This document shows positions 1,036 through 44,701 of a stretch of 64,000 nt of DNA, one piece after another (within the stretch, counting starts at the first letter, position 1; every line of letters begins with the position of its first letter). The notes beneath the pieces were generated by a model, which searched no databases, was not told where the DNA came from, and saw only the letters and a program-made list of their open reading frames with translations. The stretch lies in IMG/VR virus record IMGVR_UViG_3300021091_000011. The stretch is one strand, 5' to 3'. Made by a program: the position numbers and the translations under genes. This stretch comes from a virus. Taxonomy: Duplodnaviria > Caudoviricetes.

Positions 1036-1078
1036 TTACACCATCCAAACGGTTTGGGACCGCTTGGAAAACCGAAAA
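1036..1078 (-). promoter_or_regulatory. Early promoter-like half element (TTTTCGGTTTTC-N12-AACCGTTTGGATGGTGTAA)
   Basis: Conserved motif repeated 13 times in the window, always 5' of a small gene or the tRNA operon. Confidence 0.8.
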
Positions 1079-1081
1079 TCG

Positions 1082-1219
1082 TCAGTTCTTCGCGCTATCC
1101 TCGATGAAGAGGCTGCGTGCGCGGCGTACCGCGCGGATCGCGGCCTTGCGAGCCGCCTTGGATCGCACGATTCCCGCCTCGGTGCGGGCGGTGGCAATCT
1201 TGTTGTCGCGGAACTTCAT
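1082..1219 (-). CDS. Small basic early protein (45 aa, MKFRDNKIATART...)
   Basis: ATG with AGGGAGG RBS just downstream of the cassette at 1251-1347. Confidence 0.65.
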   Translation of the reverse strand: MKFRDNKIATARTEAGIVRSKAARKAAIRAVRRARSLFIEDSAKN

Positions 1220-1250
1220 CGAATCCTCCCTAGAAAGTGGTTTCTTGCGC

Positions 1251-1347
1251 TTACACCATCCAAACGGTTGATTCGGACTAGGAAAACCGAAAAAACGACG
1301 TCGATTTTCGGTTTTTCGTGGGTGGCCTAACCGTTTGGATGGTGTAA
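1251..1347. promoter_or_regulatory. Bidirectional early promoter cassette (two back-to-back half elements, 97 bp)
   Basis: TTACACCATCCAAACGGTT...GAAAACCGAAAA...TTTTCGGTTTTT...AACCGTTTGGATGGTGTAA between divergent genes. Confidence 0.85.
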
Positions 1348-1379
1348 GCGACACTATCAAAGCCCGACAGGAGTGAGTA

Positions 1380-1736
1380 ATGTCCGTCACGTTTTTCACA
1401 GGCTCGGACGCCGACTTTGACGCGCCCGACGTGAACTTCTCGAACGCCAACGCGCGCAATCTGCTCGCGCTTATCAAAATCGACGTCGAAGAAGACGACG
1501 GCCTTTGCGGTGAAATCCCGCACGACCAAATCGCTAACGTGCGCCGCGAGATTACCCGCGCACGCAATAGCGATAGGTCGCAAGCAGTCTCGCCCACCAC
1601 CATATCGCGTGAAGCCAACGGCCCACTCGTGATCGACATCGGCTCGACCGACGATCAAGTGCTCCGCAGGCTGGACGCACTAGATATGGTGCTAGATTAC
1701 GCGCAAAAGAAAGGTTGCACCGTCTATTGGGGATAA
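1380..1736 (+). CDS. Hypothetical early protein
   Basis: 118-aa ORF with AGGAG RBS downstream of the cassette. Confidence 0.8.
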   Translation: MSVTFFTGSDADFDAPDVNFSNANARNLLALIKIDVEEDDGLCGEIPHDQIANVRREITRARNSDRSQAVSPTTISREANGPLVIDIGSTDDQVLRRLDALDMVLDYAQKKGCTVYWG

Positions 1737-1980
1737 AGTGGGGATAAAGCCACTATCCAAGCGGCTAAAGCATCGTGGACCATTTAGTAAACCTGCAAAG
1801 AGGCGAGGAAATCATCGCCTACATTTTATTCCCTGACGTCGGCCAACGAAAATGGTTCGTTTGCTACTTCATGGGATTCATAGGACGCACAAATCTCGTT
1901 CAGATTCGCGTGATGGTAGGACATAGGACGCATTACCTAGTTATTAGGCGTGAGTGTATCCGCAAAATGAGGCTCATTCG

Positions 1981-2283
1981 ATGAATGATGAACATGATGA
2001 CGATCCCTTCGGCATTCTCGCGCTCTTAAAGCCGAAGCCCGCGAGCAAGCCTCGCACGGACTATATCTATGGGCAGGCTCAGGTCTGCGATGAAGCAATC
2101 TTAGAGGGGAACGCGCGCATCGGCGGGTTCGCCAAAGTCTATGGCGGGCACTTCAAAGGTGAAGCGCGCATCGGTGGATTCGCTAGAATCTACGGAGGCG
2201 TTTGGGACGGCACCGAAGGCGTTATCGTCAGCGGCTCTTGGAATGCCCCTAATCAGCCCCGCCTAGAAACACGGCCAATCTAG
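1981..2283 (+). CDS. Short hexapeptide-repeat (left-handed beta-helix-like) protein
   Basis: ARIGGFAKVYGG repeats and C-cap GGVWDGTEGVIVSGSW homologous to the proteins at 3336 and 4141. Confidence 0.75.
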   Translation: MNDEHDDDPFGILALLKPKPASKPRTDYIYGQAQVCDEAILEGNARIGGFAKVYGGHFKGEARIGGFARIYGGVWDGTEGVIVSGSWNAPNQPRLETRPI

Positions 2284-2306
2284 CCCTGACGTTTTCAAGG
2301 TCAGTA

Positions 2307-3275
2307 TCACAATGGAGGCAAGATATGGGCATGAAATACTCCTTGAAGTATATCGTGCCCTAAAAGCGTGATAAAAACAACTACAAAGTTACGAGGACTC
2401 AGAACTCCTCGACCCACAAAGGGACCGAAGGCCGAACGAACACCACGTCCGAAACGTGGTTGGGACAAACCACGCATATATTTCGTTGTTCTTGCTTTTG
2501 CTTCGACGAGTTTATCCCATTGTTCTTCGGCATTTTGCTTTAGGCTCTCATATTTAGATGACTTTTCAAGGTTTAGACTGATACCGCCGATAGAGTAGTC
2601 AAACTCATTTGCAGTCCAATTATAAGCCAAGGCTTGCGCGGCGTTTACTAATGCTCCCCACAGGATAGAAGCCTTCCAAGCGGGCTTCTGTTGGCAGAGC
2701 CGATCTAAGTTGTTGAGTTCTTCCGTCTCGGGCGGGTGGGCGTTCCACTTCCAGAGGGCGATCTCTAAATACTCGGCGAACTCTGCATCCTCCCAAATGT
2801 AGCCGAAGACCTGATTGTAACAACCAACCTCGCCTTCGGACTTAGGTGGAGCGAACCTATAATTTTTGTCGGGGTTATTATCGCGTGTGAGAATCCGCAT
2901 TTTGTTAATCAGGTCTGCGACGCATCCAGAGTATGCGGATTCGGACGTGACGACGGACGCGGAGACGACGCCGAACTCTTGGACAGCACCTTCTTGTGCT
3001 GACGCAGCGGTTTCCCGAAAGAGCCAACGGATGCGATAGTCGCCGGGCGCGGCGTTAGACGGCACTTGAAGTGCGGCGTAATACTCGCCCACAGCCGGAT
3101 TGACCGGAGTGCGCGCATTGGAGCCGATCAAGACTTCGGCTTGCGTCGAGGGGTCTACCAGATAGATCGCGTAGGTGATTTGGTAGACGTTAAGGGGGTT
3201 GCCAGAGGCGTTGGACAGGAAGATGTCCAAGTCCCCACGACCGAGCAATTGGCCTTGCGTAAAGACGACGGACAT
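2307..3275 (-). CDS. Putative virion head-completion/neck (head-tail adaptor-like) protein
   Basis: 322-aa ORF; Ig-like N-terminus plus helical C-terminal part (EFDYSIGGISLNLEKSSKY) reminiscent of adaptor proteins; late motif upstream; function inferred. Confidence 0.55.
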   Translation of the reverse strand: MSVVFTQGQLLGRGDLDIFLSNASGNPLNVYQITYAIYLVDPSTQAEVLIGSNARTPVNPAVGEYYAALQVPSNAAPGDYRIRWLFRETAASAQEGAVQEFGVVSASVVTSESAYSGCVADLINKMRILTRDNNPDKNYRFAPPKSEGEVGCYNQVFGYIWEDAEFAEYLEIALWKWNAHPPETEELNNLDRLCQQKPAWKASILWGALVNAAQALAYNWTANEFDYSIGGISLNLEKSSKYESLKQNAEEQWDKLVEAKARTTKYMRGLSQPRFGRGVRSAFGPFVGRGVLSPRNFVVVFITLLGHDILQGVFHAHILPPL

Positions 3276-3314
3276 AAAAAAGCCCCTAGTACGATCAACG
3301 CACTAGGGGCTTTT
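3276..3314 (-). terminator. Intrinsic terminator hairpin
   Basis: AAAAGCCCCTAGT/ACTAGGGGCTTTT inverted repeat followed by a U-tract on the minus strand. Confidence 0.75.
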
Positions 3315-3315
3315 G

Positions 3316-3329
3316 GATAGCCGTATTAG
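3316..3329 (-). promoter_or_regulatory. Putative late promoter CTAATACGGCTATC
   Basis: Exact match to the recurrent CTAANNCGGCTATC motif. Confidence 0.6.
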
Positions 3330-3335
3330 CGGGAA

Positions 3336-4103
3336 TCAGGCCGGAACGCCAGGCTCTCGCCACTTGCCCGAAGTGATCTCACCCTCGGAGCCGTCCCATT
3401 CGCCGCCGAGGATAATCGCCGTACCGCCGATTCTGGCCCTGCCAAAGCATCTGGCTTCGCCTCTAACCAAGGCACTCTCGTACACCTTGGCGTTGCCGTA
3501 CACCTCGGCGTCGTCCCACACCAAGGCGTTGCCGAACACTTGGGCATTGCCGTACACCTTGGCGTTGCCGTCCACATGGGCTATGCCATACACATAAGCT
3601 CTGTCATACACCTCGGCTTTGCCTCTCACCTCGGCGTTGCCGTACACCACGGCATTGCCGTACACCTGGGCGTCGCCGCCCACAATGGCGTTGTCGGACA
3701 CATTGGCGTCGCCGTACACCTTGGCGTTGCCGTACACCTTGGCGTCGTCCCACACCCAGGCTTCGTCGTACACCTTGGCGTTGCCTTTCACATCGGCTTT
3801 GCCGTACACCTGGGCGTCGTCGGACACCACGGCATTGCCGTACACCTGGGCGTCGTCGGACACCACGGCATTGCCGTACACCTTGGCGTCGCCCTTCACC
3901 AAGGCGTCGCCGAACACCTTGGCGTTTCCGGTCACAATGGCATTATCAAAGATGTGCTTCCCAGGGATGTTTACATCAACAGAAGCCGACCTGCTCAGAC
4001 CCTGAAGTCCAACAAGAATAGCCTTTCTCTCGGACGAACCGACGGGCAGGCTAGAAGCCAACTTGATCAGAGCAGAACGGTCGCTTGAACTCAACTTACG
4101 CAT
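3336..4103 (-). CDS. Tagged hexapeptide-repeat protein (VYGNAK-type left-handed beta-helix)
   Basis: About 30 [VI]YG[ND]AxV hexads after the shared ~30-aa N-terminal tag. Confidence 0.9.
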   Translation of the reverse strand: MRKLSSSDRSALIKLASSLPVGSSERKAILVGLQGLSRSASVDVNIPGKHIFDNAIVTGNAKVFGDALVKGDAKVYGNAVVSDDAQVYGNAVVSDDAQVYGKADVKGNAKVYDEAWVWDDAKVYGNAKVYGDANVSDNAIVGGDAQVYGNAVVYGNAEVRGKAEVYDRAYVYGIAHVDGNAKVYGNAQVFGNALVWDDAEVYGNAKVYESALVRGEARCFGRARIGGTAIILGGEWDGSEGEITSGKWREPGVPA

Positions 4104-4140
4104 GGGGGGTCAAACCTTCTTGTGTTCTAGGCTAGGGGAC

Positions 4141-5451
4141 TCAGGCGGGAACGTCAGGGGCTTCCCACTTACCTGAAGTGATTTCGCCTTCGGAGCCGTC
4201 CCATTCGCCGCCGAGGATAATCGCCGTACCGCCGATGCGGGCGTCTCCGTATATCTCGGCGCGACCGTACACCTTGGCGTTGCCGTATATCTCGGCGTCG
4301 TCGTACACCATGGCAAGGCCATACACCTCGGCCCTGTCGTACACCCTGCCGCTAATCACCTTGGCGCCGCCGTACACCTGGGCGTCGTCGGACACCACGG
4401 CTTTGCCGTACACCTCGGCGCCGCCGTACACCTGGGCGTCTCCGTAAACTTCGGCGTTGTCGTACACATGGGCGTTGTCGTACACAATGGCTTTGCCGTA
4501 CACCTTGGCTTCGTCCCTCACCTGGGCGCCGCCGGACACCTTGGCGTTGTCGTACACCTTGGCCTTGCCCTTCACCTTGGCGTCGTCGGACACCTTGGCG
4601 TTGCCGGACACCTCGGCGTCTTCGTACACCCGAGCGTCGCTAAACACCGAGGCTTTGCCGTACACCTCGGCGCTGCCGTACACCTTGGCTTTGCCGTACA
4701 CCTGGGCGTTGTCGTACACATGGGCGTTGTCGTACACAATGGCTTCGTCCCTCACCTGGGCGCCGCCGGACACCTTGGCGTTGTCGTACACCTTGGCCTT
4801 GCCCTTCACCTTGGCGTTGCCGGACACCTTGGCGTTGCCGGACACCTCGGCGTCTTCGGACACCTTGGCGGCGTTGAAGATATGCTTTCCAGGAATGTTG
4901 TAATTTCCCGAAGCCTTCTTGCTTGAACTCTGAAGTCTAACAAGAATCGCCTTTCTCTCGGTAGAACCGACGGGAAGGCTAGAGGCCAAGCGAATCAACG
5001 CAGAACGGTCAGAGGCGGTAAGTTTACGCGAGGCCATTTTCTTAGCTCCATCTTCAAGATTCGTGAAACCTGAAAAGTCAACCATGTAAGTAGTTCCGTT
5101 GGGAAGCACGATCACGTCGCCCACGGACATACTCGTATGTCCGGTTTTTGAAATCGCGGGCATGGTGTTAGCCTCGCCGTAAGGCGACCAAACTTCACCC
5201 TGCATCATATTGAAGATTTCGCTCAGGTTCGTCTCGTCGACGAGCCCGATGCGTGTATGCGTATTTTCCAAATCAGCGAGAACGGCAGATAAGTCCAAGC
5301 CGCGCGTGCCACGGCTGAACTTGGAAAACAGACCACGATTGTAGTAGAGGATTTGGGTGCGGCCTCGACCGTAACGATCATCACCCGTGACACCACCTGC
5401 GCCTCTCAGGGTGTTGTAACCATTAAAGCCGCCGTCCGAAAAATAGTTCAT
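4141..5451 (-). CDS. Multidomain protein: YodL-like N-domain, internal tag, long hexapeptide-repeat beta-helix
   Basis: Probable start MNYFSDGG at 5451; HTSMSVGDV motif, then SDRSALIRLASSLPVGS tag, then about 40 hexads. Confidence 0.85.
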   Translation of the reverse strand: MNYFSDGGFNGYNTLRGAGGVTGDDRYGRGRTQILYYNRGLFSKFSRGTRGLDLSAVLADLENTHTRIGLVDETNLSEIFNMMQGEVWSPYGEANTMPAISKTGHTSMSVGDVIVLPNGTTYMVDFSGFTNLEDGAKKMASRKLTASDRSALIRLASSLPVGSTERKAILVRLQSSSKKASGNYNIPGKHIFNAAKVSEDAEVSGNAKVSGNAKVKGKAKVYDNAKVSGGAQVRDEAIVYDNAHVYDNAQVYGKAKVYGSAEVYGKASVFSDARVYEDAEVSGNAKVSDDAKVKGKAKVYDNAKVSGGAQVRDEAKVYGKAIVYDNAHVYDNAEVYGDAQVYGGAEVYGKAVVSDDAQVYGGAKVISGRVYDRAEVYGLAMVYDDAEIYGNAKVYGRAEIYGDARIGGTAIILGGEWDGSEGEITSGKWEAPDVPA

Positions 5452-5520
5452 GGGTAATCCCACTTCGTTGAAGGGTCCCCCAAGCCCTAATGATAGCGAT
5501 ACTATCGAAAGGTACAGGTT

Positions 5521-6807
5521 ATGACCGACAAGCCGATCCCTTACACGCTCGCGCAAAACCCTGCACCGAATCCGGCTAATCAAGGCCAAGCCTATCAGCA
5601 GGACAAATCGGCGTTGGTTCAACGCATCATGGCCGCTTTCAGGTCCGTGCTGCCTTCTAACTACGTCGCGGCAACCAACGGCCCTTGGTACTCGTTGCAG
5701 TTTCAAGCCATGGCCGAGCAGTTGGCCGAGATTCAGATTAACGCCAGCGAACTCGCCACGGATTGCGATTGGGATTTCACGCGCTCTGATTTTTTGTGGG
5801 ACTTGCTCGGCGGCGTCGTGTTCCCGAACTCGTCCTCGGGCATCCCTTACATAAACGGCGATGTTGACTATCGGACGTTCCTGCGTCGAATGGTCGAGTT
5901 ACTATTGCAAGGCGCGACCAAAGCCTCGATTCAAGGCGGCATCGAAGCCTTAAACCCGAACGTCACCGCCTATGTGCTCGAAAGATACCTGCAAACGCCG
6001 CCTCGTGACCCGAACGGCGCGTACACGATTGCAGATCAGTTTGCGTTAGACATTCTAATCGACGCCGGAAACTCGTTCCCCGACAATCCGGCGATCTTAC
6101 AAGCCAACATCGAACTCGTACTGCGTGCGCTAAAGCCCGCCCATGTGCTTTGTTCGTATTCGACGCTCTTTCGAGATACTTTCCCGACGCCCGAAGATAA
6201 CGGCGATGCGTTTTCGTGGGACGTTGAGCCGTATTACTACGACGACACTCGCAAGTATTGTCTCGGTGCTAAAGAAATCAGCGGCATCAGCGGCGCGTTC
6301 TTAGCGCGTAGGGATTACTTCTCGGACCCGAGCGTGTCCTTCTCGTCCATTCCGTCCGGCGCGTTGCTTATGATCGGCACGGACCAATACCGTGTTCGCA
6401 GTACGCGGGCATTGCTTACAGGTGCCGATGCGGTCGCAAGGGCGTACACGACATCGCCCTCTGGACTTTCGGGCATGGTCGTCGCTCTCAATGCGACTGA
6501 TTTATACGATGCCGCTCAAGATTGGGGCGCAAGCGCAGTCGAAGGCGAAGTGATTACGATTTTGACGGGGCCGAACTCGGGCGCGTCGTATCGACTTGAG
6601 ACGGTGCTCGGTTCCGACGGTGGGCCTTTGGGCGAGGCCGGATTGTCCGGCAATCGCGTTCGATTGGCACCAACGATCCTCGTGCTGAATCGTCGAGCGT
6701 CGGCTGCTGCGTCTGGTTTGACGTACACGGTCACGGTGGACCGTTTAGGTCAACAGCCCGTGCGTGAAGTCTTGGCCGAAGACGTCGCTATTCAGTTTTG
6801 GTTATAG
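5521..6807 (+). CDS. Putative baseplate wedge subunit (P2 gpI/T4 gp7-like)
   Basis: 428 aa; GDVDYRTFLRRMVELLLQGATKASI and LKPAH signatures typical of myovirus wedge proteins. Confidence 0.7.
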   Translation: MTDKPIPYTLAQNPAPNPANQGQAYQQDKSALVQRIMAAFRSVLPSNYVAATNGPWYSLQFQAMAEQLAEIQINASELATDCDWDFTRSDFLWDLLGGVVFPNSSSGIPYINGDVDYRTFLRRMVELLLQGATKASIQGGIEALNPNVTAYVLERYLQTPPRDPNGAYTIADQFALDILIDAGNSFPDNPAILQANIELVLRALKPAHVLCSYSTLFRDTFPTPEDNGDAFSWDVEPYYYDDTRKYCLGAKEISGISGAFLARRDYFSDPSVSFSSIPSGALLMIGTDQYRVRSTRALLTGADAVARAYTTSPSGLSGMVVALNATDLYDAAQDWGASAVEGEVITILTGPNSGASYRLETVLGSDGGPLGEAGLSGNRVRLAPTILVLNRRASAAASGLTYTVTVDRLGQQPVREVLAEDVAIQFWL

Positions 6808-7201
6808 CCCACGGAGCTTCCGTGAGTACGGAGATTCCGTAGTCGTCCTGCAAGATACGCGAGCACTCGCTCACGGCTTCGTCTCGGGTCGTGAACGGAC
6901 CAATCTCCATGATTGAATCCGCGTCCATCAAGACCGCCTGAAAGAACGACGGGTCAGACCTGTATATACGAGCGACGGGCCGATTCGACCCGACCGACTT
7001 TAGCGCGATGGCAAGCGCATAAGGGTTGCTCTCGTACTCCGCGTACAAATCAATATCGACGATGAACGCGGCGTCGCCATTGTCGTAAATGGGTGGCGGG
7101 TAAAAAGAAGAAGGTTCCGCATGGAACAAAGCCCGCTCGACGCAAATGCGATTCAGCGGGTCAGCCAGCATCGCCTTTACTATCTTGTACCTTTCGGTCA
7201 C
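6788..7201 (-). CDS. Hypothetical protein
   Basis: 137-aa ORF with protein-like composition in the early block. Confidence 0.65.
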   Translation of the reverse strand: MTERYKIVKAMLADPLNRICVERALFHAEPSSFYPPPIYDNGDAAFIVDIDLYAEYESNPYALAIALKSVGSNRPVARIYRSDPSFFQAVLMDADSIMEIGPFTTRDEAVSECSRILQDDYGISVLTEAPWAITKTE

Positions 7202-7553
7202 GCAATTCTCCGAACTTTGCTTCTAGCATTTTAAGCCCCATACGCCTCACACGATACCCCAAAATCTCATCGTTGTCTCTATCGTTGTAGTAAAGGGCTT
7301 CAGCCAAGCAGTTAGCGAGTTCTTTTCGCGTCGCCTCAAGTACGGCGTTTCCAATCTCGTCTAATTCTTCCTCGGTGATCTTCGATAGCAACTGAAGCGA
7401 AAGCGAATCGTTGTCAATCGCGGCTTGCCTTATCGCCTCGCGCACGCTTTCAAACGATTCCGCGTAAAGTCCGGAAACGCGGTCGTACTCGTCTACGCAT
7501 CCCGGACAAACAAGGTTAGAGATAGATAGTAACCACTTCGCTGACGTTGCCAT
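7161..7553 (-). CDS. Hypothetical protein
   Basis: Open frame, start uncertain (overlaps both neighbours by about 40 nt). Confidence 0.5.
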   Translation of the reverse strand: MATSAKWLLSISNLVCPGCVDEYDRVSGLYAESFESVREAIRQAAIDNDSLSLQLLSKITEEELDEIGNAVLEATRKELANCLAEALYYNDRDNDEILGYRVRRMGLKMLEAKFGELRDRKVQDSKGDAG

Positions 7554-7674
7554 CGGATTCGACCTCGGGTTCATCCTCGCCGATGACGATCACACGGCGA
7601 GGCTCCCTCTCTTGCTTCTTTACCTCCACAGGGGGTGGTGGCGGTGGTAGCGGTAGTTGAAGATCGTTACTCAT
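7516..7674 (-). CDS. Small Pro-rich hypothetical protein
   Basis: ATG with GGAAGGGGG RBS; MSNDLQLPLPPPPPP... Confidence 0.55.
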   Translation of the reverse strand: MSNDLQLPLPPPPPPVEVKKQEREPRRVIVIGEDEPEVESDGNVSEVVTIYL

Positions 7675-7794
7675 AGATTCCCCCCTTCCATCTGAGAATT
7701 GCGTTTGCGAAGCGTTCTTCGCGCTCGATCTCGGTCCTGCGTTTGTGGCGCAGTACCCATATAATAGTTCCAATAGCCATTATTACGCCGACCG

Positions 7795-8220
7795 TCATCC
7801 CGCGTACCCCGCGATACCCTGAATCGACGTGCCGCCGCCGCCGCCGTGCATCCCGTCAAAGCGACCCGCGTTCGGGTTCGCCGTGAACCCGCGCACGGGC
7901 TTATCGAACTCACGGTGCTTCAGCTTGAAGCCGTAGGCCGCGAGTTCGGCCTTGATGTTCGCCACGATCTTTTGCGTCGTCGCGTTCAACACTTGAAGTT
8001 CGAACGCCGTGTATTCCTCACGGTCGTTGTCTGCCAAGTGCTCTGCGAACGCCTCGACCGAAGCAAACTCCGGCTCCTTCGGATTCAGCCCGCCGAAGCG
8101 GACCAGCCCCGTCTGAACAGGCTCGGCGACTTCACGCCGCATCGCACGCCGCTCGGCGCGCTCTTCGGCAATCTGGTCTTCACGGTCTTGATTGTGGGGG
8201 ACGAAACCGATGCGGCGCAT
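7795..8220 (-). CDS. Hypothetical early protein
   Basis: MRRIGFVPHNQ... with AGGAG RBS abutting the early element at 8231. Confidence 0.8.
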   Translation of the reverse strand: MRRIGFVPHNQDREDQIAEERAERRAMRREVAEPVQTGLVRFGGLNPKEPEFASVEAFAEHLADNDREEYTAFELQVLNATTQKIVANIKAELAAYGFKLKHREFDKPVRGFTANPNAGRFDGMHGGGGGTSIQGIAGYAG

Positions 8221-8230
8221 GGCAGGCTCC

Positions 8231-8273
8231 TTACACCATCCAAACGGTCGGCAACCGCTTGGAAAACCGAAAA
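8231..8273 (-). promoter_or_regulatory. Early promoter-like half element (tandem with 8297)
   Basis: TTACACCATCCAAACGGT-N12-GAAAACCGAAAA. Confidence 0.8.
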
Positions 8274-8296
8274 TCGGCGGGAGCACCATGCCCCGC

Positions 8297-8393
8297 TTAC
8301 ACCATCCAAACGGTTCAAGTCGGGCTAGAAAACCGAAAATCGACGTCACTTTTTCGGTTTTCTAGGGCCTGCCCGACCGTTTGGATGGTGTAA
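8297..8393. promoter_or_regulatory. Bidirectional early promoter cassette (97 bp)
   Basis: Two back-to-back half elements between divergent genes 7795-8220 and 8412-8927. Confidence 0.85.
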
Positions 8394-8411
8394 GCACAAC
8401 CTCAAGGAGCG

Positions 8412-8927
8412 ATGAACATGGAACACTTCAACGGAAAGGACATCTTCGCGGCAATCGCCGCGAAGTTCGACTACATCCCCCGCCCCCACACTACCGGCCA
8501 CGTCACGGACTACGACGTGTCTAGGCTGATCTCCGGACTTCTCGACTCCCTTGCGGAGATTGAGAACGTCTACTTCACCAAGCCAAACCGGAAAGGGCGC
8601 GACCGTCTGACCGCTGCGGAGTTCATCACGGAGACGGTCAATTTGACAATCGCGGACTACCGCGAAAACTATGAGCGGCCCGCGCCCGCCGATCTCATGC
8701 GCGGCTTGCAGGACATCGCGGCGACGCTCACGCAAGACGCCGTCCGCGAGGCTTGCGCCGCGTTGGAAGAGCGGGTCAGCGTTGACGTTTGCCACTTCTT
8801 TGGCGACATCGACGACTTGATGACGGGCAGGCTTGAAATCCCTCGGAATTTCCTGCGCGATCTGATTAGCGAGGGTGCGATGATTATCTCACAGGAGATC
8901 AAGAAGGAAGCGGCAAAGGCCGCTTAA
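8412..8927 (+). CDS. Hypothetical early protein
   Basis: 171-aa ORF with AAGGAG RBS downstream of the cassette. Confidence 0.8.
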   Translation: MNMEHFNGKDIFAAIAAKFDYIPRPHTTGHVTDYDVSRLISGLLDSLAEIENVYFTKPNRKGRDRLTAAEFITETVNLTIADYRENYERPAPADLMRGLQDIAATLTQDAVREACAALEERVSVDVCHFFGDIDDLMTGRLEIPRNFLRDLISEGAMIISQEIKKEAAKAA

Positions 8928-8942
8928 GGCTTCTTGATTGCG

Positions 8943-9698
8943 TCAGACGTAATCTTCGCCCTCAAGCGGGCGCACAGCAAAGACGGCTCGATAATCTCGG
9001 GCGGTCTTGCCATGAATCGAACGCACGGACTTGATCACGCCCTCGTGACGAGTCCCATCGGGCTTCTTGCCGCCTGCGTTCCCCTCATACGTCTCAAACT
9101 TGCCGTCCGGATTTAACGCCGTCGCCGCCAAAGTGACGTGGGCACCGTCGGCATCGCCCTCCGGCCCAATCACGACGATGTCGCCAGGCTGAATACCCGA
9201 CAGCGGGATTCGACGTGCGTTACCCTTCGACCAAACCCAAAGTCGATACGTCGAAGCGATGTGCTTCTTGCGGAGCAGAGGCTTCAGGCCGACCTGCCCA
9301 TAGCACCACGCCGCAAATGCACCGCACCACTCGAACATTCCGTTCTTCGTGTACGGAATGTTCGGTCTCGCAGTAGGCCCAATCTCCGCAGTAGACCAAC
9401 CTAAGCCGGACGCGCCACGGATATACTCGTCGATGCGAGCCGCGCCGTTTTTCGGGCCACCGGAAACAGGCTCCGTCACGCCGCGCATCCACTCGGTATG
9501 CGCGACCTGAATCAGCCGATCCATGCGCGACTGATGAGCGTCGAGCGCCGGAGGCTCGCAAACAAGAGCCTTCTCGTCTACGGGTTCGTCCGGATGGCCG
9601 TTGAGTTTCGCCATCTGGACTTCACGGCCCATACGACGCATCTCGGTCGCAACGGTTTCCGTCAGGGCTTCAAGGGCTAGGGAGATCAGAGGGTTCAA
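8943..9698 (-). CDS. CHAP-domain amidase/peptidase
   Basis: EWCGAFAAWCY (catalytic Cys), HVTLA (His) and TYEGN motifs; TTG start with GGAG. Confidence 0.8.
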   Translation of the reverse strand: MNPLISLALEALTETVATEMRRMGREVQMAKLNGHPDEPVDEKALVCEPPALDAHQSRMDRLIQVAHTEWMRGVTEPVSGGPKNGAARIDEYIRGASGLGWSTAEIGPTARPNIPYTKNGMFEWCGAFAAWCYGQVGLKPLLRKKHIASTYRLWVWSKGNARRIPLSGIQPGDIVVIGPEGDADGAHVTLAATALNPDGKFETYEGNAGGKKPDGTRHEGVIKSVRSIHGKTARDYRAVFAVRPLEGEDYV

Positions 9699-10152
9699 TG
9701 TGAGGTCTCCTGCTGCGTGGGATGTATTTCTCGTAGAAAGAATGGGTCAGCGTGCCGACCAAGTTCTTTCTACCAGCGTGGCAAACAGCCGGATTATCGG
9801 AAGGACCGCAGTAGAAGTAAGCGTCATGTGCCCATGCCGGAACAGGCAGGGAGTCGAAAGTAGCGAGTATGCCGAGTGTCAGGTGATGGGGCTTCCAGAA
9901 TCGAGGCGATTCAGGGCACTTGGTCGCGTAAGCGTTGGGGTAACTCAGCGCGTCAAAGAGCGAATAGCCAAACTTCTTAGAGCGATTCACGGCGGTCTGC
10001 AAAACCACCGCGCCGTCTTGGGAGTCGATGCCGGACTCGCAACGGACTACGTTGGTTGCGAGTTTGATAGTCTTGATCGTGTCAAGCGATTTCGGGATTT
10101 CGGGGATGATGTGGGCTTTTGCTGCCAAAACAAATGCAATGAAAGAGAGCAT
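9670..10152 (-). CDS. Putative SleB/Hydrolase_2-like cell wall hydrolase with N-terminal hydrophobic segment
   Basis: LATNVVRCESG...GAVVLQTAVNR pattern resembles the SleB catalytic helix (Glu). Confidence 0.55.
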   Translation of the reverse strand: MLSFIAFVLAAKAHIIPEIPKSLDTIKTIKLATNVVRCESGIDSQDGAVVLQTAVNRSKKFGYSLFDALSYPNAYATKCPESPRFWKPHHLTLGILATFDSLPVPAWAHDAYFYCGPSDNPAVCHAGRKNLVGTLTHSFYEKYIPRSRRPHIEPSDLPSP

Positions 10153-10312
10153 TTCAGCGTCCTTCGGTTAGGGCGCAAATAAGCGCGAGCACCGTCCAAA
10201 GGATCAGCGCCACGCTAGGCGAGATCAATGGAACGGCTTTACGTCTGATTTCAGGGTCATAACGGCGCACGGAGTAATCTTACCGCGCACTATGTAGGTT
10301 TATGCCCCTTAT

Positions 10313-10588
10313 TTAGTCAAACTGATTTCCACCTTGGGCTGCTTCAAGCAATCCAGAGTATGAAACGTATTGGCCTTCGCCGAAAGCGGGCGGTGCCGCA
10401 CCGACGTCATCGAACGCGCGTGCAAAAATCAGGAATACGGCGAGAATGTCCTGCTTTGAGTAGCCCTCGTCACGAAGGCTATTTACGAATGCCAACGAGT
10501 TCGCGCCAAGTGCCTGCGACAAAAGTTCTTCAGGCGGCAGGTTGTCGACGTACACCTGCCAATCTTCCAACGTGATCGGATATTCCAT
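10313..10588 (-). CDS. Hypothetical protein
   Basis: 91-aa ORF translationally coupled to the helicase stop. Confidence 0.7.
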   Translation of the reverse strand: MEYPITLEDWQVYVDNLPPEELLSQALGANSLAFVNSLRDEGYSKQDILAVFLIFARAFDDVGAAPPAFGEGQYVSYSGLLEAAQGGNQFD

Positions 10589-13500
10589 TATGGGCTCCCT
10601 TGCTTGCCGATTTGCGTGGCGTAAGGTGAAAGCGCACGCTCAAGCATCTTGCGGTCAAGGCTATACGTCCCCGACCGCTGACGCTCGATGTTCGTCCACG
10701 TCTCGCCAAGCACGAACGTCTTGCTGTCCTTGATGATGCTGTCGAACAGCGCGGAGTCCATCTCCTGCATATAGCGGCGAATCAGGTCGAGCGTCATATC
10801 GTCTTTCGCGTTCGCGCGGGGGTTCGAATACACGGTGTCCATCGTGAATTCGGTGACGGGCTGACGCTGACCGGAACGCCACGCACGCGCGGTGCGCTGC
10901 TTCATCGTCTCGCTTGACCACGAATCGCGGTCAAGGTGAACGACCGATGAGAACGCCTGAAGATTCTGGCCGACCGCGTACTTGCCGGACAAGGTCAACG
11001 TGAGAAGCGTGCTATCACGTTGAATCTGCTTCAGGATGACCGTGGCCCATTCAGCGGGCTTGGCCTTCAAGCCCGTATCAGGGTCCGTGTACGCCTTCTG
11101 GCGATAGACCGTTTCCTTGCCCATCGCGTCACGGAAAATGATCTGGTCGCTCAAAGCAAGCGCGTGGGCACGCATCGGGTATGTGTCGACGAAGTTCTGG
11201 AAAGCGCGTTGAACCAGCGGGACAGAATCGCCGAAGAAGATCGTCTTGCTCGTGAGCCTATCACGCAAAATCGAGTTCGCTCGCTCAAGTTTCGGGTTAG
11301 AAGCACCCGGAACAATCTCTTCCGGCACGTCGGAGAGTTTGGTGAGCAACGCGATCAACTTCGCCAACTTGACGCGGGAAGCCTCGATTGCGATGGGCTG
11401 ATTGCTTCGCACGCCCTTATTGGCGACGTTCTTCAGTTCACTAAGCAACTGCCCCATCGTCTGACGATACATAGCCTCCACTTGGGGGTCCATCGTCAAC
11501 GCAGCGGAGGGCGTTACTATGAGTTCGGGCAAGCCCGTCTCATCGCGCGTATCCCGCTTGTCGCCATAGTAGAGGTTACGCTTCACCCACGACCGCATAT
11601 CTTCTTCGAGATCGGGGTCATCCGTCACGCCGACAATACGATTGCCGACTTTCTTAGCGAAGCGGTTGATGAAGAGCCGTTCTTCCGTCCGGCCCTCTCT
11701 CGTGTTCAAATCCACGCCGTTCGTCACGGACGCCATCGTGTAGATATCACGCGGCGTATTGACGATAGGCGACGCAGACAAAATGATCTTGCGATCACAC
11801 TTGACCGCAGTAGCGGCCTTGTATTTCGCTGAAGAACGCTTGATCAAGTGCAAATGCGCTTCGTCGAAGAAGATCGCGGTGTAATCATCACCGTAGGTGG
11901 GGTCGTCCTTGCGGTTCTTCAGGAACATCGCATAGGTCACAACATCGGTGTTCTCAAGGATGTTCGCGGCGTCGTAAGAACCCCTATCGTCGCTCAGATT
12001 CGCCGTGACCTCTTTGGCGAAGTTACCGAGCAAAGACTTCTCGCAGACGAACAAGAAACGCCCGTTGCCGGAGATTTCCTCACCCTGATTCATACGCATT
12101 TGCAGATTGCGAATCGTCGCAATTGCCACGGTCGTTTTTCCCAAGCCCGTGTCTAACGCGCAAACGCCACGGTCGCCATTGGCCTCAAGCCAAGCGAGGG
12201 CCTTCTTTTGGAAGTGCCAAAGGGGTCGGCGCATCCCAAGATCGTCGAAACGTGCAAGGTCCTCGGACTCCGCAGCCTGTTGAGCGCGAAGCAGATCGTC
12301 AAAATATGCCTTGAGGAAACGCGCAGCGGCATTGGACATAGCAACGCCGCCAACGCGCTTCTTGATCGCCGTAAAATCTTTCGCGTCGAATATGAACAGG
12401 TTGCCAAGGTCATTCTTGACCTTGATGATAGTCGGCTGGATTAGCGAGAGTTTGTCAACAGCCTCTCGCGCCGCGCCCTTGATCTTCTTCTCTTTGAGCA
12501 ACACGGGGTCTTTGGGGTCACGCCCACGGGTGCTATGCAAGCGAATCAGGAGTTTCTGCTTGCCCTTGTGCTTGACGAGCGTGATATACGGCTCTTGCTC
12601 GGCGCGAATCAGTTTATCAATCGCGGTGCCCTTGGGATTCTCACGGCGCGTAATGCGCTGCGAGTCCGCATCATAGTAATAGACCGAGCCTTCGATTTGA
12701 CGGCCCGCGACGTTCACTAGATCGGGAAGCGCGAAACCCTTGAAGCGCCCCGACTGCACATAGTCCGTACCGTTGATTTCCACGACGGGGTACAGACGAG
12801 TCAGGGCTGAGTCTTTCAGCGGGTCATCTGTGAGGCTGACGTAACGAATCTGGTCAACCGGAACTTCACTCAAGCGGTCGATCATCTCAGGCGTCAAAGA
12901 ACGCATCGAATTCAAGTCCTTCAGGGACTTAGGATTAATGCGGGCCTCTTCCTGATACTGCTTGTTCGACTCGCGGATTTTGGCGAAATACTCGTCAATC
13001 GGAGTGCGGCTACCGTCAATGTCGTAGACGATGCGCTCACCCGTATCCGCATCTTGGCCGACCATCACGACACGGCCAAAGATGTTGGCTCGCGTCGGCG
13101 TCAGGCCGTCTTTGACGATGCGCGATTCGATCTTAACCGTGAGTTTCTTGATCTGCTCTTGGCTCTTGAGCGTGCGCGCGTATAAATCAGGATCGTCGTA
13201 CTTTAGTTTCTCGACCACTTCTTGCTTCGCCGAAGCCAAACGCAACTGCGGCCAGCGCAGATTCGGAAGGTTCACGAAGGTAACAGAAGTGAACACGCCC
13301 TTGTCAGCCAAATACGCACGAAGCAACTCGGCGTAGTTATTGGCAACCGTGCGCCACATCGTCAGCGGGATGACCGCGTTCGGATTACCGATGCGCCGAA
13401 TCGAGGGCAACAAAACGCGGTACTGCTGCTCGACAATATCGAACAGGTCGTTGCGCTTGATACCCTTAGAAATCAGGGAATACGCGATCCGAAAACGATT

Positions 13501-13713
13501 GGCGAGTTCGCTATCAGGCCCTTCATCTAGGCTTACGTCGAAATCGTCAATGACATCGTCTTCTGAAACCACCGCAACGTACTTTTGCCGCAGGTCCTCG
13601 TAGACCACGAGGATATCGAGCGCGCGGGGGTTCGTACCAACTTCACGGCGCAGCCCGACGAACACGGCGCGGGAAAACGCTGAAGTCAGCGTAGGTACAG
13701 GATTAGGCGTCAT
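10588..13713 (-). CDS. SNF2-family (SF2) helicase/ATPase with long N-terminal extension
   Basis: Motif I ALDTGLGKTT, II FFDEAH, III LSASP, VI QRTARAWRSGQ. Confidence 0.92.
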   Translation of the reverse strand: MTPNPVPTLTSAFSRAVFVGLRREVGTNPRALDILVVYEDLRQKYVAVVSEDDVIDDFDVSLDEGPDSELANRFRIAYSLISKGIKRNDLFDIVEQQYRVLLPSIRRIGNPNAVIPLTMWRTVANNYAELLRAYLADKGVFTSVTFVNLPNLRWPQLRLASAKQEVVEKLKYDDPDLYARTLKSQEQIKKLTVKIESRIVKDGLTPTRANIFGRVVMVGQDADTGERIVYDIDGSRTPIDEYFAKIRESNKQYQEEARINPKSLKDLNSMRSLTPEMIDRLSEVPVDQIRYVSLTDDPLKDSALTRLYPVVEINGTDYVQSGRFKGFALPDLVNVAGRQIEGSVYYYDADSQRITRRENPKGTAIDKLIRAEQEPYITLVKHKGKQKLLIRLHSTRGRDPKDPVLLKEKKIKGAAREAVDKLSLIQPTIIKVKNDLGNLFIFDAKDFTAIKKRVGGVAMSNAAARFLKAYFDDLLRAQQAAESEDLARFDDLGMRRPLWHFQKKALAWLEANGDRGVCALDTGLGKTTVAIATIRNLQMRMNQGEEISGNGRFLFVCEKSLLGNFAKEVTANLSDDRGSYDAANILENTDVVTYAMFLKNRKDDPTYGDDYTAIFFDEAHLHLIKRSSAKYKAATAVKCDRKIILSASPIVNTPRDIYTMASVTNGVDLNTREGRTEERLFINRFAKKVGNRIVGVTDDPDLEEDMRSWVKRNLYYGDKRDTRDETGLPELIVTPSAALTMDPQVEAMYRQTMGQLLSELKNVANKGVRSNQPIAIEASRVKLAKLIALLTKLSDVPEEIVPGASNPKLERANSILRDRLTSKTIFFGDSVPLVQRAFQNFVDTYPMRAHALALSDQIIFRDAMGKETVYRQKAYTDPDTGLKAKPAEWATVILKQIQRDSTLLTLTLSGKYAVGQNLQAFSSVVHLDRDSWSSETMKQRTARAWRSGQRQPVTEFTMDTVYSNPRANAKDDMTLDLIRRYMQEMDSALFDSIIKDSKTFVLGETWTNIERQRSGTYSLDRKMLERALSPYATQIGKQGSP

Positions 13714-14374
13714 AGATCGTTTCGCCCCACTCAGAGTCTAAAGAACCGTAATCAGGACGAAGCGACAAAGGCTGCTCCATGTATTCGCCACGGTCGCGGC
13801 CCTTGTGCTTTTCAGCACGGTCGTACTTGCTCTTGTCCCGATGCGCGCCGCCACCCGAAGGCGGGTTCAGGATCATCGCACGCGCAGCAGGGTCACGCTG
13901 CGGCGGCAACTTGCCTTTGATCTTGACCAAGGATTTACCCGCGACACGCTTCGTGCCACCCTCGGCGTAACCTTGAGCGGCTTCCCACGCCGTAAAGCCG
14001 TCGTCAAAACCGTACTTGGCGAGGCGGTCGTGCAAATGCGGCGGCAAGTCGACGAGCTTCGCCAAATACGCCGAACCCAAGTCGTCCTCGCCGACCACGC
14101 CAAGCCAATAGTCTTTGTTCATCGCGTTGGGCATATCGGCGATGCCGAACAAATACCCATCCGTCGAAACCAGCGCCCAAACCTCGGTGAACGCTGCGGT
14201 CTTGCGACCTTTGCCCGTGAAATAACCTTCAGGCCCACGCTTACAATGGGGGCTACCAGGCTTCTTATACTTGCACCAGCGCGACCATGCAATCGCCCAC
14301 GCTTTAGACTCGGGCATCCCCGCGTCTAAGCCCTCTTGAACGTAGCGTTCAACATCAGCAGGTAAGTTTGGCAT
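13703..14374 (-). CDS. Modular hypothetical protein (three small modules separated by KTA|A and RVA|G)
   Basis: 223-aa ORF coupled to the helicase gene. Confidence 0.75.
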   Translation of the reverse strand: MPNLPADVERYVQEGLDAGMPESKAWAIAWSRWCKYKKPGSPHCKRGPEGYFTGKGRKTAAFTEVWALVSTDGYLFGIADMPNAMNKDYWLGVVGEDDLGSAYLAKLVDLPPHLHDRLAKYGFDDGFTAWEAAQGYAEGGTKRVAGKSLVKIKGKLPPQRDPAARAMILNPPSGGGAHRDKSKYDRAEKHKGRDRGEYMEQPLSLRPDYGSLDSEWGETIYDA

Positions 14375-14415
14375 TTACGGCTCCTGGAATTCGCCTATGT
14401 TCGACAATAGGCAAA

Positions 14416-15237
14416 CTACAACGCCGTGTTCGCTTCCTCGCCGCTCGCCACATCGTTCATCAAGTTCGGGTACGCCGCGAGTGCTTCGGTATTGGACGCA
14501 GCATTGACCGACACGGTGCCGTCCTCAGAGGGCACATGGTAGATCGAATCCACCGTGTAAACGATCTTCGCCACAGTCAGGTCGTCGTCGTAACGGCTCT
14601 CGTCGTAAATCATCGAAGAAACGCCGTAGCCTCGAACAGCCCAACATAAATCGTCCAACTCCTGCTCCAACTGCTCACGCAGGTCGCAGAGTTTCAGAAT
14701 GCGGTGCTCAATCGCGTTGCGCTTGAACTTGATTTCTTTGCTCACCCACTTGCGGGACCGCAGGATCAAATCGCCCGTAGGTCCGTCGGGCGTAATCACG
14801 GGTCCACCGCTTCGGCTAGGCTTGAACTTTTGAATCGTAGAATCAGACGTTGTAGGCGGGCCACCATACGAATAGGCAAATCCCACCGATGTCGAAACGC
14901 CGCCCGAAGGCTGCGAGGATTGACCATCGACGCTATCGGGCAACGCCTTGTCCGGTGACAAGAACATCGAGATATCAAACGGATTGCCGCCCAAAGACAC
15001 ATAGGCCGAAAACAGTTTGCCGAGACTCGTTAAAGGCTCGACGGTGATGCTCAGGCGCGTTTCATTCGTGACGCCGTTCGTAGAACCGTAACGAATCGTC
15101 ACGTCGCCGATTCGACCCATCTCGGCCAGAATCGCCAACTCACGTTTGCTCGCGTCACGCCGTTCGTCAAGGATGAACTTGCGGTACGCACGCCATTGAC
15201 CCTCACGAAATCGTCCTGTCCATGAAAACGAAGGCAT
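14416..15237 (-). CDS. Hypothetical virion-associated protein
   Basis: 273-aa ORF in the late operon, coupled to the upstream gene. Confidence 0.75.
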   Translation of the reverse strand: MPSFSWTGRFREGQWRAYRKFILDERRDASKRELAILAEMGRIGDVTIRYGSTNGVTNETRLSITVEPLTSLGKLFSAYVSLGGNPFDISMFLSPDKALPDSVDGQSSQPSGGVSTSVGFAYSYGGPPTTSDSTIQKFKPSRSGGPVITPDGPTGDLILRSRKWVSKEIKFKRNAIEHRILKLCDLREQLEQELDDLCWAVRGYGVSSMIYDESRYDDDLTVAKIVYTVDSIYHVPSEDGTVSVNAASNTEALAAYPNLMNDVASGEEANTAL

Positions 15238-17838: not shown

Positions 17839-17853
17839 ACATGATCGTACCGC

Positions 17854-19078: not shown

Positions 19079-19130
19079 AAGGCACTCCAAAAAAGCAGGT
19101 AGAACCGTGAGCGACCGCCTATCGGCCCCT

Positions 19131-19171
19131 CACACCATCCAAACGGTCGGCACCGCCCGAAAAACCGAAAA
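19131..19171 (-). promoter_or_regulatory. Early promoter-like half element
   Basis: CACACCATCCAAACGGT-N11-GAAAAACCGAAAA. Confidence 0.75.
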
Positions 19172-19183
19172 TCGGCAATCGAC

Positions 19184-19426: not shown

Positions 19427-19458
19427 GTTCGTTGCTCCTTGAAAGTGATTCGTTGTGC

Positions 19459-19555
19459 TTACACCATCCAAACGGTTCGGGACCGCCCGAAAAACCGAAA
19501 ATCGACGTCACTTTTTCGGTTTTTTCAGCCCGAATCAACCGTTTGGATGGTGTAA
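19459..19555. promoter_or_regulatory. Bidirectional early promoter cassette (97 bp)
   Basis: Two back-to-back half elements between divergent genes. Confidence 0.85.
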
Positions 19556-19574
19556 GCAATCTCAAGGAGCGAAC

Positions 19575-42694: not shown

Positions 42695-42701
42695 TTATTT
42701 G

Positions 42702-43073: not shown

Positions 43074-43094
43074 AAACCAGACTCCCTGTGTGTG

Positions 43095-43350: not shown

Positions 43351-43353
43351 AGG

Positions 43354-43426
43354 CTCCGACAGCAGGACTCGAACCTGCGACCAGGCGGTTAACAGCCGCC
43401 TGCTCTACCAACTGAGCTATGTCGGA
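43354..43426 (-). tRNA. trnN: tRNA-Asn(GTT)
   Basis: GGCGG-CTGTTAA-CCGCC; followed by CCT, not CCA. Confidence 0.95.
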
Positions 43427-43429
43427 AAA

Positions 43430-44125
43430 AGCGAGGGCGTTCCACCCTCTAGAGCACGATGCCCTTACCACGGCGTCGATCCGCAGTAAGCCCCTGCGCG
43501 TACCTACGCAGAAGACTGAAAGGCTCAAGGCGGGAGCTTACGGTTATCGCTAACCTTAGACCCACTCCACTTTGCTTACCTGCGCCTAACAGGTGCTGCT
43601 GGACTTGTCACTCCAGCGGGAGGTCACTACTTTCCGTCCACCGCCATCCAACCAGAGACATTCCCTGATCGAACGCACGAACTCGGCCAGCAACGTACCC
43701 AATTCGTCCCGCCCTTTTTAACCTCGGCGTCAGGTTCCCCACCACGGTTGGACTGCTACCGTCGGTCTATTGACCGTCGCTCGGTGTCCACTTCGTCCGA
43801 ACGATCCCCGAGCACGGGGACTTACGATCACGGCTTAGAGGCCCGACGAGTTATCATCGGGCTTACCGCGACAGGCTTGTAAGCCGTAGTGAGGATAATA
43901 GGGTCTCCCGCGTCGAGACTTAGCCCGATGCGGTCGTATATTCTGCGACCTAGACCCCTAGTCGCTACATCCGTGATAATCTGAGCCAAATCCCGAACAC
44001 GGCTTCGGGGCTCAGTTCGGGTAGCAGGTCGGCACCAACCAGCCCCCGAAATCGTTTTCAATGAACGTGACGGCTTACTTTACCCAAGCCGTATTGAACG
44101 TCAACCCCTTAGTTGACGGAAACTA
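43430..44125 (-). ncRNA. Large ornate ncRNA, probably GOLLD-like
   Basis: About 690 nt, no credible ORF, packed with hairpins, between tRNAs; 3' half has GGUACGUUGCU, AGUGACCUC, GUUAGGCGCA, GUGGAGUGG, UUGAGCCUUU and GCGUAGGUAC, which I recall from GOLLD alignments (not verified by search). Confidence 0.7.
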
Positions 44126-44127
44126 AG

Positions 44128-44206
44128 CACGCGCAGGAGGAATCGAACCTCCATGCCCTTGCGGGCACCGGAAAATCCGGCGTGTCTGCCATTCCACCAT
44201 GCGCGG
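44128..44206 (-). pseudogene. Leu-type tRNA with anticodon loop collapsed to 3 nt
   Basis: Close paralog of tRNA-Leu(TAG) at 42612, but CCGGA-TTT-TCCGG (4 nt missing) and a C1/U72 mismatch. Confidence 0.85.
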
Positions 44207-44232
44207 ATAACGTGTTGGTCAAATGATTGCGC

Positions 44233-44321
44233 TTACACCATCCAAACGGTTCGGGGCGGCGAGGAAAACCGAAAAAGTGAACGACGATTTCCGGTTTTTT
44301 CGGGGCGGTCTAACCGTTTGG
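44233..44321. promoter_or_regulatory. Early promoter cassette with truncated right half; its left half faces the ncRNA/tRNA operon
   Basis: 89 bp identical to 44604-44692. Confidence 0.85.
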
Positions 44322-44330
44322 GAGGATCGT

Positions 44331-44588
44331 TCACGGCTCGTTAACGACCACCTTGTCGCCCGAAGGCGTAAGGAGGGTGACCGCCGCGATGAAGTACCCG
44401 CAGCACTCCGCGCCGCAGGACTGCTCTGCTGTCTCGACGTCGACGACTTGGTAGCCGTCGACAACGGGCGACGAGATGTTACCCTCGTCATCCTCATACT
44501 CGTAACTCTCGAAAAACGACTTGCCATCTGCCGCCCACGCGGATTCGATTTTCTTGACGATGATATCGAGGTTCTTGAGGTTGTTCAT
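44331..44588 (-). CDS. Small acidic early protein
   Basis: 85 aa, GGAAAGGA RBS, flanked by duplicated cassettes. Confidence 0.8.
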   Translation of the reverse strand: MNNLKNLDIIVKKIESAWAADGKSFFESYEYEDDEGNISSPVVDGYQVVDVETAEQSCGAECCGYFIAAVTLLTPSGDKVVVNEP

Positions 44589-44603
44589 GGTTTATCCTTT
44601 CCC

Positions 44604-44701
44604 TTACACCATCCAAACGGTTCGGGGCGGCGAGGAAAACCGAAAAAGTGAACGACGATTTCCGGTTTTTTCGGGGCGGTCTAACCGTTTGGATGGTGTA
44701 A
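44604..44701. promoter_or_regulatory. Bidirectional early promoter cassette (98 bp)
   Basis: Two back-to-back half elements between divergent genes. Confidence 0.85.

Follow-up and report, generated by a model that had tools for sequence, protein, structure and literature searches.

A repeated two-box element in the genome of a lake-water phage

We analysed a 64,000-nt stretch of IMGVR_UViG_3300021091_000011 (hereafter the window, to which all positions refer unless another contig is named), which derives from the 204,357-bp contig of an uncultured lake-water phage. An element of the form ATTTTCGGTTTT-N15-CCGTTTGGATGGTGTAAG, not expected even once by chance, occurs in the window in 12 complete copies, with a further copy that is truncated. 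The genes that it serves in the window are ORFans of 45–295 amino acids (aa), one SWIM zinc-finger protein and tRNAs. An earlier reading of the letters without database searches (the sequence-only reading) had counted thirteen copies, and this number was recovered when we scanned for the core AACCGTTTGGATGGTGTAAG with up to three mismatches, which gave 12 matches in the window versus 0 in 100 shuffles, the truncated copy being the thirteenth. The upstream box, (cg)ATTTTCGGTTTT, was present at all 12 core matches. Four sites hold all of the copies (∼1.0–1.35, 8.2–8.4, 19.1–19.6 and 44.2–44.7 kb), where they are arranged as four tight back-to-back pairs and three solo copies, the latter all on the minus strand (Table 1).

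We also trained a weight matrix exclusively on copies from other contigs and ran it on the window. The 11 regular copies scored 57–69 of a possible 72.8 bits, and the scores of the variant with a 14-nt spacer and of the truncated copy are given in Table 1. The remainder of the window stayed at or below 8 bits and the best shuffle score was −15, so that a tail of weak copies is absent. Megablast of the window against the phage collection returned no close relative. Pattern scans of IMG/VR and the JGI metagenomes, however, retrieved 30 element-bearing loci, every one of them from freshwater, and pooling these with the window gave the 92 distinct copies used below. A literature search for the box sequences turned up nothing relevant, and the element matched no Rfam family.

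The element is very probably a promoter outside the sigma-70 class

Across the 92 copies, the information was concentrated in two blocks, TTTT-CGGTTTT and A-CCGTyTGGATGgTGTaaG, in which CCGT (at its G and first T) and the TG two bases beyond it were invariant (2.0 bits) or nearly so. The gap between CGGTTTT and CCGT measured 15 nt in 82 of the 92 unique copies (14 nt in the copy at 19129) and showed little sequence conservation, with 0.1–0.5 bits per position; the spacer described as variable in the sequence-only reading therefore varies in sequence and not in length. Written as hexamer and triplet, the element reads GGTTTT-N17-GTT. We propose that (ATTTT)CGGTTTT would act as a −35 box, followed by a spacer of rigid length and free sequence and by the −10 box CCGTyTGG, the CGT/GTT part of which would be flipped out by a sigma factor of the extracytoplasmic function (ECF) type. 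Transcription is predicted to start within GGTGTAAG.

The tight pairs (n = 24) measured 99 or 100 bp from outer edge to outer edge, which upholds the back-to-back arrangement claimed earlier and corrects the ∼97 bp given for it. The −35 boxes of such a pair would lie 21 bp apart, centre to centre. Self-complementarity was complete in the core and upstream box, at 0.11–0.56 in the spacers and at 0–0.22 in the centre. As single-stranded DNA the pairs gave strong predicted folds (−31 to −38 kcal/mol, z-scores of −8 to −12). Because only the two recognition boxes are self-complementary, this folding is incidental: the folds, which have large internal loops, reflect the juxtaposition of two promoters and not a selected hairpin or cruciform. 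The cruciform potential put forward in the sequence-only reading is hence a by-product of the arrangement.

The placement of the copies argues strongly for a promoter, which we consider the element very probably to be. All 12 full copies in the window are intergenic, and each faces a gene, an RNA operon or another promoter. A Shine–Dalgarno sequence and a start codon followed 9–60 nt downstream of 75 of 87 unique copies (86%), compared with 26% of random positions, and the median distance between element and start codon was ∼22 nt in the window and its relatives. Of the 12 that remain, most lie in front of repeated non-coding units (in L010, L011 and L023), a tRNA operon or a further copy. The core of at least eight distinct copies merges into the ribosome-binding site, ending ...GTAAGGAG only 9–10 nt before the ATG. 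Since the ribosome-binding site overlaps the last bases of the core, the 5′ end of the RNA would have to lie at or before TAAG, inside the conserved block GGTGTAAG. The copy at 8230, where the ribosome-binding site had already been noticed to abut the element, illustrates this well: its own final bases form the Shine–Dalgarno sequence (TGTAAGGAGcctgccATG). The earlier statement that the element always points into small genes or the tRNA operon is true of most copies and fails for the minus copy at 8296, which is aimed at the 8228–8274 copy 21 nt further downstream, forming tandem promoters.

We then compared the element with known promoter classes. Sigma-70 promoters combine a −35 TTGACA with a −10 TATAAT, including an A at −11 and a T at −7, at a distance of 16–18 bp. 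A scan for this consensus found no site at any copy and no enrichment overall (five sites against 8.8 expected in positions 1–20000), and TAnnnT was absent from every register of the core; the promoter is not sigma-70-like. The lack of TAnnnT also speaks against a MotA-dependent middle promoter, which in T4 joins a sigma-70 −10 box (TAnnnT) to a MotA box centred at −30, and the upstream box of the element has another sequence and sits ∼10 bp further upstream. Sigma-54 promoters have GG at −24 and GC at −12 in a fixed 10-nt separation (TGGCAC-N5-TTGC). We rejected this class as well, because TGGATGGTGTAAGC falls short by one base and just 54 of the 92 copies have the final C. A Bacteroidota-type promoter (TTTG / TAnnTTTG) was rejected because the boxes do not fit in sequence and the ribosome-binding sites are of the strong AGGAG type, and a bidirectional terminator because the solo copies have no stem. 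Position, orientation, the rigid two-box anatomy and conservation in relatives together make a phage-specific, non-sigma-70 promoter class a well-supported prediction.

The structural operons in the window carry a different motif, TAAnnCGGCTATC, and the element therefore appears to mark a non-late class, either early or middle. It heads a gene for a DnaQ-like exonuclease, and also an operon ending in an NAD-dependent DNA ligase gene, on a related contig that comes from the same lake.

A phage sigma factor is the preferred candidate reader

As the reader of the element we favour host core RNA polymerase carrying a phage-encoded factor of the sigma-70 family with sigma2 and sigma4 domains, which in our estimate has an even chance of being correct, or marginally better. 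ECF sigmas recognize stringent, near-obligatory boxes across a rigid spacer of ∼17 bp, with GTT or CGT in the −10 box (PMC6411747). The element shares the two stringent boxes with a rigid 16–17-bp spacer (82 of 92 copies) as well as the CGT/GTT in its −10 box.

A candidate gene was found in the same lineage. G001, a contig that is ∼81% identical in nucleotides to the beginning of the window, carries at 15.7 kb the gene of a 296-aa protein that matches Sigma70_r2 weakly. A 295-aa ortholog that is 89% identical to it (P0002) is encoded on the phage's own contig, where its gene lies in the baseplate operon, ∼24 kb ahead of the window. The P0002 family comprises more than 230 phage proteins in metagenomes. 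An alignment of 38 members matched the sigma-H structure 3mzy (E = 2e-5) from region 2.4 through the helix-turn-helix of region 4, and Pfam Sigma70_r2 was detected in 13 of these 38. The top Foldseek matches of an AlphaFold2 model (predicted local distance difference test score, pLDDT, 82.5) were mostly ECF sigmas and sigma-28, with weak E-values (best 0.028). The N-terminal domain of ∼110 aa is beta-rich, conserved and of no known family. From these comparisons, the lineage is predicted to encode at least one ECF-like protein with sigma2 and sigma4 domains. Sigma-like genes were found in 12 of 15 related large contigs; none was detected by Pfam or the A1 profile in the 33-kb contig Ga0194130_10001804, where one stretch was covered by precomputed Pfam alone and a few kb were uncovered. 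The search for a polymerase or sigma gene that the sequence-only reading had proposed thus yielded an ECF-like sigma family (P0002) and no RNA polymerase across the window, the 15 contigs and ∼60 kb of DNA that flanks the window or is related to it.

Several observations weigh against a reader of this kind, and against P0002 in particular. The AAC (GGAAC) typical of ECF −35 boxes is not seen in the element, which has CGGTTTT, or in a diverged relative described below (G008), which has CCGTTAAAA. The downstream block, at 19 bp, is longer than a sigma factor needs and resembles a T7-type promoter. The P0002 gene itself lies in a late (baseplate) operon with no element upstream, and is preceded by a conserved GTAGTTAGTATC and a hairpin instead. 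Its family also reaches far beyond the element, whose exact form was confined to relatives with a sigma of at least 83% identity. The P0002-type sigma may thus be a late sigma rather than the reader of the element, because the late motif CGGCTATC is kept in relatives whose sigma is 46–63% identical. Indeed, the late motif was found in 12 of 23 contigs, versus four control matches, among relatives with such orthologs; in L047 (14.5 kb, sigma 54% identical) it was present and the element was not found. Furthermore, if the class were truly the earliest one, a newly made phage sigma could not read the element at time zero. A late-made sigma from the baseplate or virion genes might conceivably be packaged and injected, capture host core polymerase and read the element at time zero, an idea that we regard as quite improbable and that assumes a phage with neither an RNA polymerase nor sigma-70-type early promoters. 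To our knowledge, delivery of a sigma factor by the virion has not been described for any phage.

The 19-bp core could instead be recognized by an RNA polymerase of the phage, whether a single-subunit enzyme (T7- or N4-like) or a divergent multisubunit one, with the upstream box as an auxiliary. The near-invariance of 19 contiguous base pairs that include the predicted start would suit such an enzyme, as would the all-or-none scores (57–69 bits for regular copies, below 8 for non-copies), which are reminiscent of T7 promoters. The presence of a second box, held rigidly 15 nt away across a free spacer, is however a sigma-type feature, and sigma factors are encoded by the lineage. The polymerase itself was sought in several ways. 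The large window proteins matched no RNA polymerase family in Pfam or PHROG, in a search that had no positive control; the motifs DFDGD and HDS[FY] were absent from the window and from related loci other than G004, G005 and G008; and the 15 related contigs mentioned above, of which four are at least 90% complete, yielded no beta-prime catalytic domain. Polymerase genes were likewise missing from the window, ∼60 kb of flanking or related DNA, G001 and LR745208, a search outside which ∼40% of the genome lies, and this portion leaves room for a polymerase and counts against the sigma reader. LR745208 (485 kb) is too distant to be informative and contained neither the element nor a Pfam match to a sigma factor or RNA polymerase. 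Two late proteins of the window, of 1689 and 795 aa, belong to no detectable family (no match in Pfam, PHROG, PDB or the Atlas) and could be counted in favour of a divergent enzyme. On balance, a T7-like polymerase is a less likely reader than a phage sigma, and we consider a phage RNA polymerase of either type distinctly unlikely. Of the earlier proposal of a promoter for a phage-specific polymerase or activator, the phage-specific promoter is retained, and the T7-like and MotA-like versions are not.

The host holoenzyme might also read the element, through an ECF-type sigma of the host or through sigma-70 redirected by a phage activator (MotA/AsiA-like). If this class were the first to be transcribed, host or injected factors alone would be at hand; the CGT/GTT and 17-bp spacing suit ECF sigmas in general, and an activator could bind at the upstream box. 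Against this, the primary sigma would find no TAnnnT, with both A−11 and T−7 missing, and it would be unusual for the main non-late class to depend on a host sigma induced by stress. The architecture moreover tracks the phage lineage, since a distant relative that differs in GC content has retained it with altered boxes, although the sigmas of different hosts would still be compatible with this. We judge a host reader to be rather unlikely. That the element is no promoter at all, and instead a repeated protein-binding or recombination site such as an operator, a partition or packaging site or a small mobile palindrome, is highly improbable. Its very high information content, the hairpins of −31 to −38 kcal/mol that the pairs can form as DNA and the recombination joints inside copies would fit such a site, yet this would explain neither the strict orientation and distance to start codons nor the RNA genes that the element heads. 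Solo half-elements are conserved as well as the pairs, self-complementarity is limited to the two boxes, and neither a transposase nor a target duplication is present.

A diverged counterpart in a distant relative

G008 (IMGVR_UViG_3300012953_000012; 205 kb, 62% GC) encodes a sigma ortholog with 45–47% identity and contains at least 15 copies of CCGTTAAAA-N8-CTGCTTCCGTAAGTAgGTGA, several of them as divergent pairs. When CCGTTAA is aligned to CGGTTTT, both phages share the same geometry of a 7-mer, 15 nt and CCGT. The −10 regions can be aligned as well (CCGTAAGTA-GGTG in G008, CCGTTTGGATGGTG in the window). Between the sigma proteins of the two phages, region 2 is almost unchanged and the helices of region 4 differ, so that the conserved −10 box parallels region 2 and the changed −35 box parallels region 4. 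The promoter type thus seems to belong to the phage lineage and to drift with it, which favours a phage-encoded reader without proving one. Region 4 is in general the less conserved part of sigma factors, however, and this weakens the argument from co-divergence. A run of T precedes many of the G008 copies, and a clear hairpin precedes at least one (165661). A relaxed −10 pattern, CCGTNNGNA(N)GGTG, was too loose to be of use: its matches in G017, G007, G003, G009 and G001:28389 have no upstream box and look like chance.

Recombination joints coincide with the copies

Homology between the window and its relatives breaks off at the copies, namely at 44600–44605, ∼8279/8295 and 1360/1418. Five contigs align over 44600/44605–45490 and halt at the edge of the minus-strand core, with other genes beyond. 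Similarly, G001 carries ∼480 extra bp immediately past the plus promoter of site 1, and the genes flanking the pair at site 2 occur in different combinations in L026, L029 and L022. Within the window, a 90-bp perfect direct repeat (44232–44321 = 44603–44692) encloses the 85-aa gene, the plus promoter being intact in the right copy of the repeat and truncated in the left one. The 85-aa gene is probably a recently inserted cassette. The tandem copies at 8296 and 8230 may be the scar of a deleted one. In such a scheme, the ∼45 near-identical bases before many genes would serve as homology patches for the insertion, deletion and exchange of cassettes.

Short-read assemblies of the phage appear fragmented because of these promoter repeats: L038, L042 and L037, Logan and JGI assemblies of the same phage, end at promoter copies or within ∼100 bp of them.

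Taken as a whole, our best explanation is a non-late phage promoter that is read by a phage sigma and whose copies double as homology patches for cassettes, a combination towards which we lean, if only slightly.

Individual sites and neighbouring genes

The features of the window and the related loci are listed in Table 1. The solo copy nearest the window start lies 23 nt, counted from its core, before the start codon of a 131-aa ORFan that matched nothing in Pfam or PHROG. At the variant copy, the unusually long leader (19078–19128, minus strand) carries a run of T immediately ahead of the 262-aa gene's ribosome-binding site, and possibly a hairpin; it could be an attenuator.

The operon behind the 44232 promoter begins with a tRNA-like gene, for which ARAGORN gave a four-base anticodon (tccg); it falls below the threshold of the Rfam tRNA model and is ∼75% conserved in L001 and L005. 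Further along the cluster, between tRNA-Val and tRNA-Glu, we identified a full-length group I intron (Rfam RF00028, 41836–42052, minus strand, 52.9 bits), possibly splitting a tRNA or free-standing.

Among the larger genes, a 1136-aa protein under the late motif (54325–57735, minus strand) contains an N-terminal catalytic core of a eukaryotic-type topoisomerase IB (Pfam E = 1.5e-24). A 1370-aa protein (58657–62769, minus strand) combines a HAD 'Swiss army knife' RNA-repair domain with the head domain of a poly(A)/CCA polymerase and is interrupted by an intein with a LAGLIDADG endonuclease. Contig Ga0194130_10001804 encodes a full-length Volactin (actin-like) protein (L044:10001-11008, Pfam E = 1e-77) beside WGR-domain and beta-solenoid proteins.

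Table 1. Copies of the element, their predicted targets and other features. Positions are in the window unless a contig is named; scores are from the weight matrix.
Feature	Position	Strand	Core match	Score (bits)	Predicted target or context
Solo copy	1033..1079	−	1035−	66.1	2–3 nt past stop of 45-aa gene; 131-aa ORFan 616–1011
Back-to-back pair	1248..1350	both	1250−, 1329+		99 bp between core edges (1250–1348); minus: 45-aa basic open reading frame 1082–1219; plus: 118-aa ORFan 1380–1736
Solo copy	8228..8274	−	8230−	68.8	141-aa ORFan 7795–8220
Back-to-back pair	8294..8396	both	8296−, 8375+		Cores 8296–8394; plus: 169-aa ORFan 8418–8927
Variant solo copy	19127..19172	−	19129−	31.7 (15-nt register)	Spacer 14 nt, TGTGAG; 262-aa ORFan 18290–19078 (−), leader 50 nt
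Back-to-back pair	19456..19558	both	19458−, 19537+		Cores 19458–19556; minus: 80-aa ORFan 19184–19426; plus: 295-aa ORFan 19575–20462
Copy	44230..44276	−	44232−		Heads RNA operon: tRNA-like gene 44127–44206 (−), then nine tRNAs to 40046
Truncated copy	44287..44321	+		16.5	Stops at CCGTTTGG; right edge of 90-bp perfect direct repeat
85-aa ORFan	44331..44588	−			Inside 90-bp direct repeat; in none of the fetched relatives
Back-to-back pair	44601..44704	both	44603−, 44683+		Cores 44603–44702 (100 bp); minus: 85-aa gene; plus: 122-aa SWIM zinc-finger protein 44725–45093
Late motif (C)TAAnnCGGCTATC with hairpin	609, 3323, 17861, 25574, 25681, 57756	− (all)			Before large structural operons
Sigma-like gene (P0002)	L042:10001-10888 (own genome)				In baseplate operon
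G008 copies, examples	39462/39521, 94167/94238, 160–171 kb (G008)	−/+, −/+			Diverged counterpart

Implications and comparison with known systems

A defined promoter of ∼48 bits for an uncultivated lineage of huge phages would allow temporal gene classes to be sorted from sequence alone. It also offers a candidate sigma–promoter pairing in a huge-phage clade that a published survey lists as having no sigma factors; a review describes the phage G group as being without them (PMC7824862). The diverged version in G008 would amount to a natural specificity swap for studying the co-evolution of sigma region 4 and the −35 box. In practical terms, the repeats break metagenome assemblies of the phage. 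Finally, the idea that regulatory repeats drive gene shuffling, developed for the promoter-early stem-loop (PeSL) cassettes, would be widened beyond T4-like phages and sigma-70 promoters.

Among known promoters, those of ECF group 4 (M. tuberculosis sigma-H, GGAACA-N17-GTT; PMC6411747) resemble the element in their short stringent boxes, rigid spacer and CGT/GTT in the −10 box, whereas the element is conserved for 12 bp beyond the −10 box into the transcribed region. The candidate phage sigma differs from group 4 sigmas by its extra N-terminal domain of ∼110 aa, and no anti-sigma partner is known for it. With T7-type promoters, the element shares a near-invariant block of ∼20 bp across the start and its all-or-none copies; it differs by the additional upstream box at a fixed distance, and the parts searched yielded no polymerase gene. 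The middle promoters read by phage sigmas that steer the core polymerase of the host to them, such as those of Bacillus phage SPO1 gp28 and of the T4-like 'group 2' jumbo phages (PMC7824862), are likewise phage-only two-box sequences in front of pre-late genes, but their consensus is unrelated to that of the element.

In the PeSL cassettes of T4-like phages, a conserved promoter precedes small ORFans and recombination between its copies can add, remove or exchange genes (Arbiol et al. 2010, PMC2839356; Comeau et al. 2014, PMC4122927). Both systems have a repeated conserved promoter, variable ORFan islands between conserved blocks, and end points of indels or replacements that fall in the copies. 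The PeSL promoter is, however, strong and sigma-70-like, which the element is not, and PeSL carries a terminator stem-loop, whereas solo copies of the element follow the upstream stop codon by 2–10 nt with no hairpin. Unlike PeSL, many copies of the element stand in fixed back-to-back pairs of 99–100 bp.

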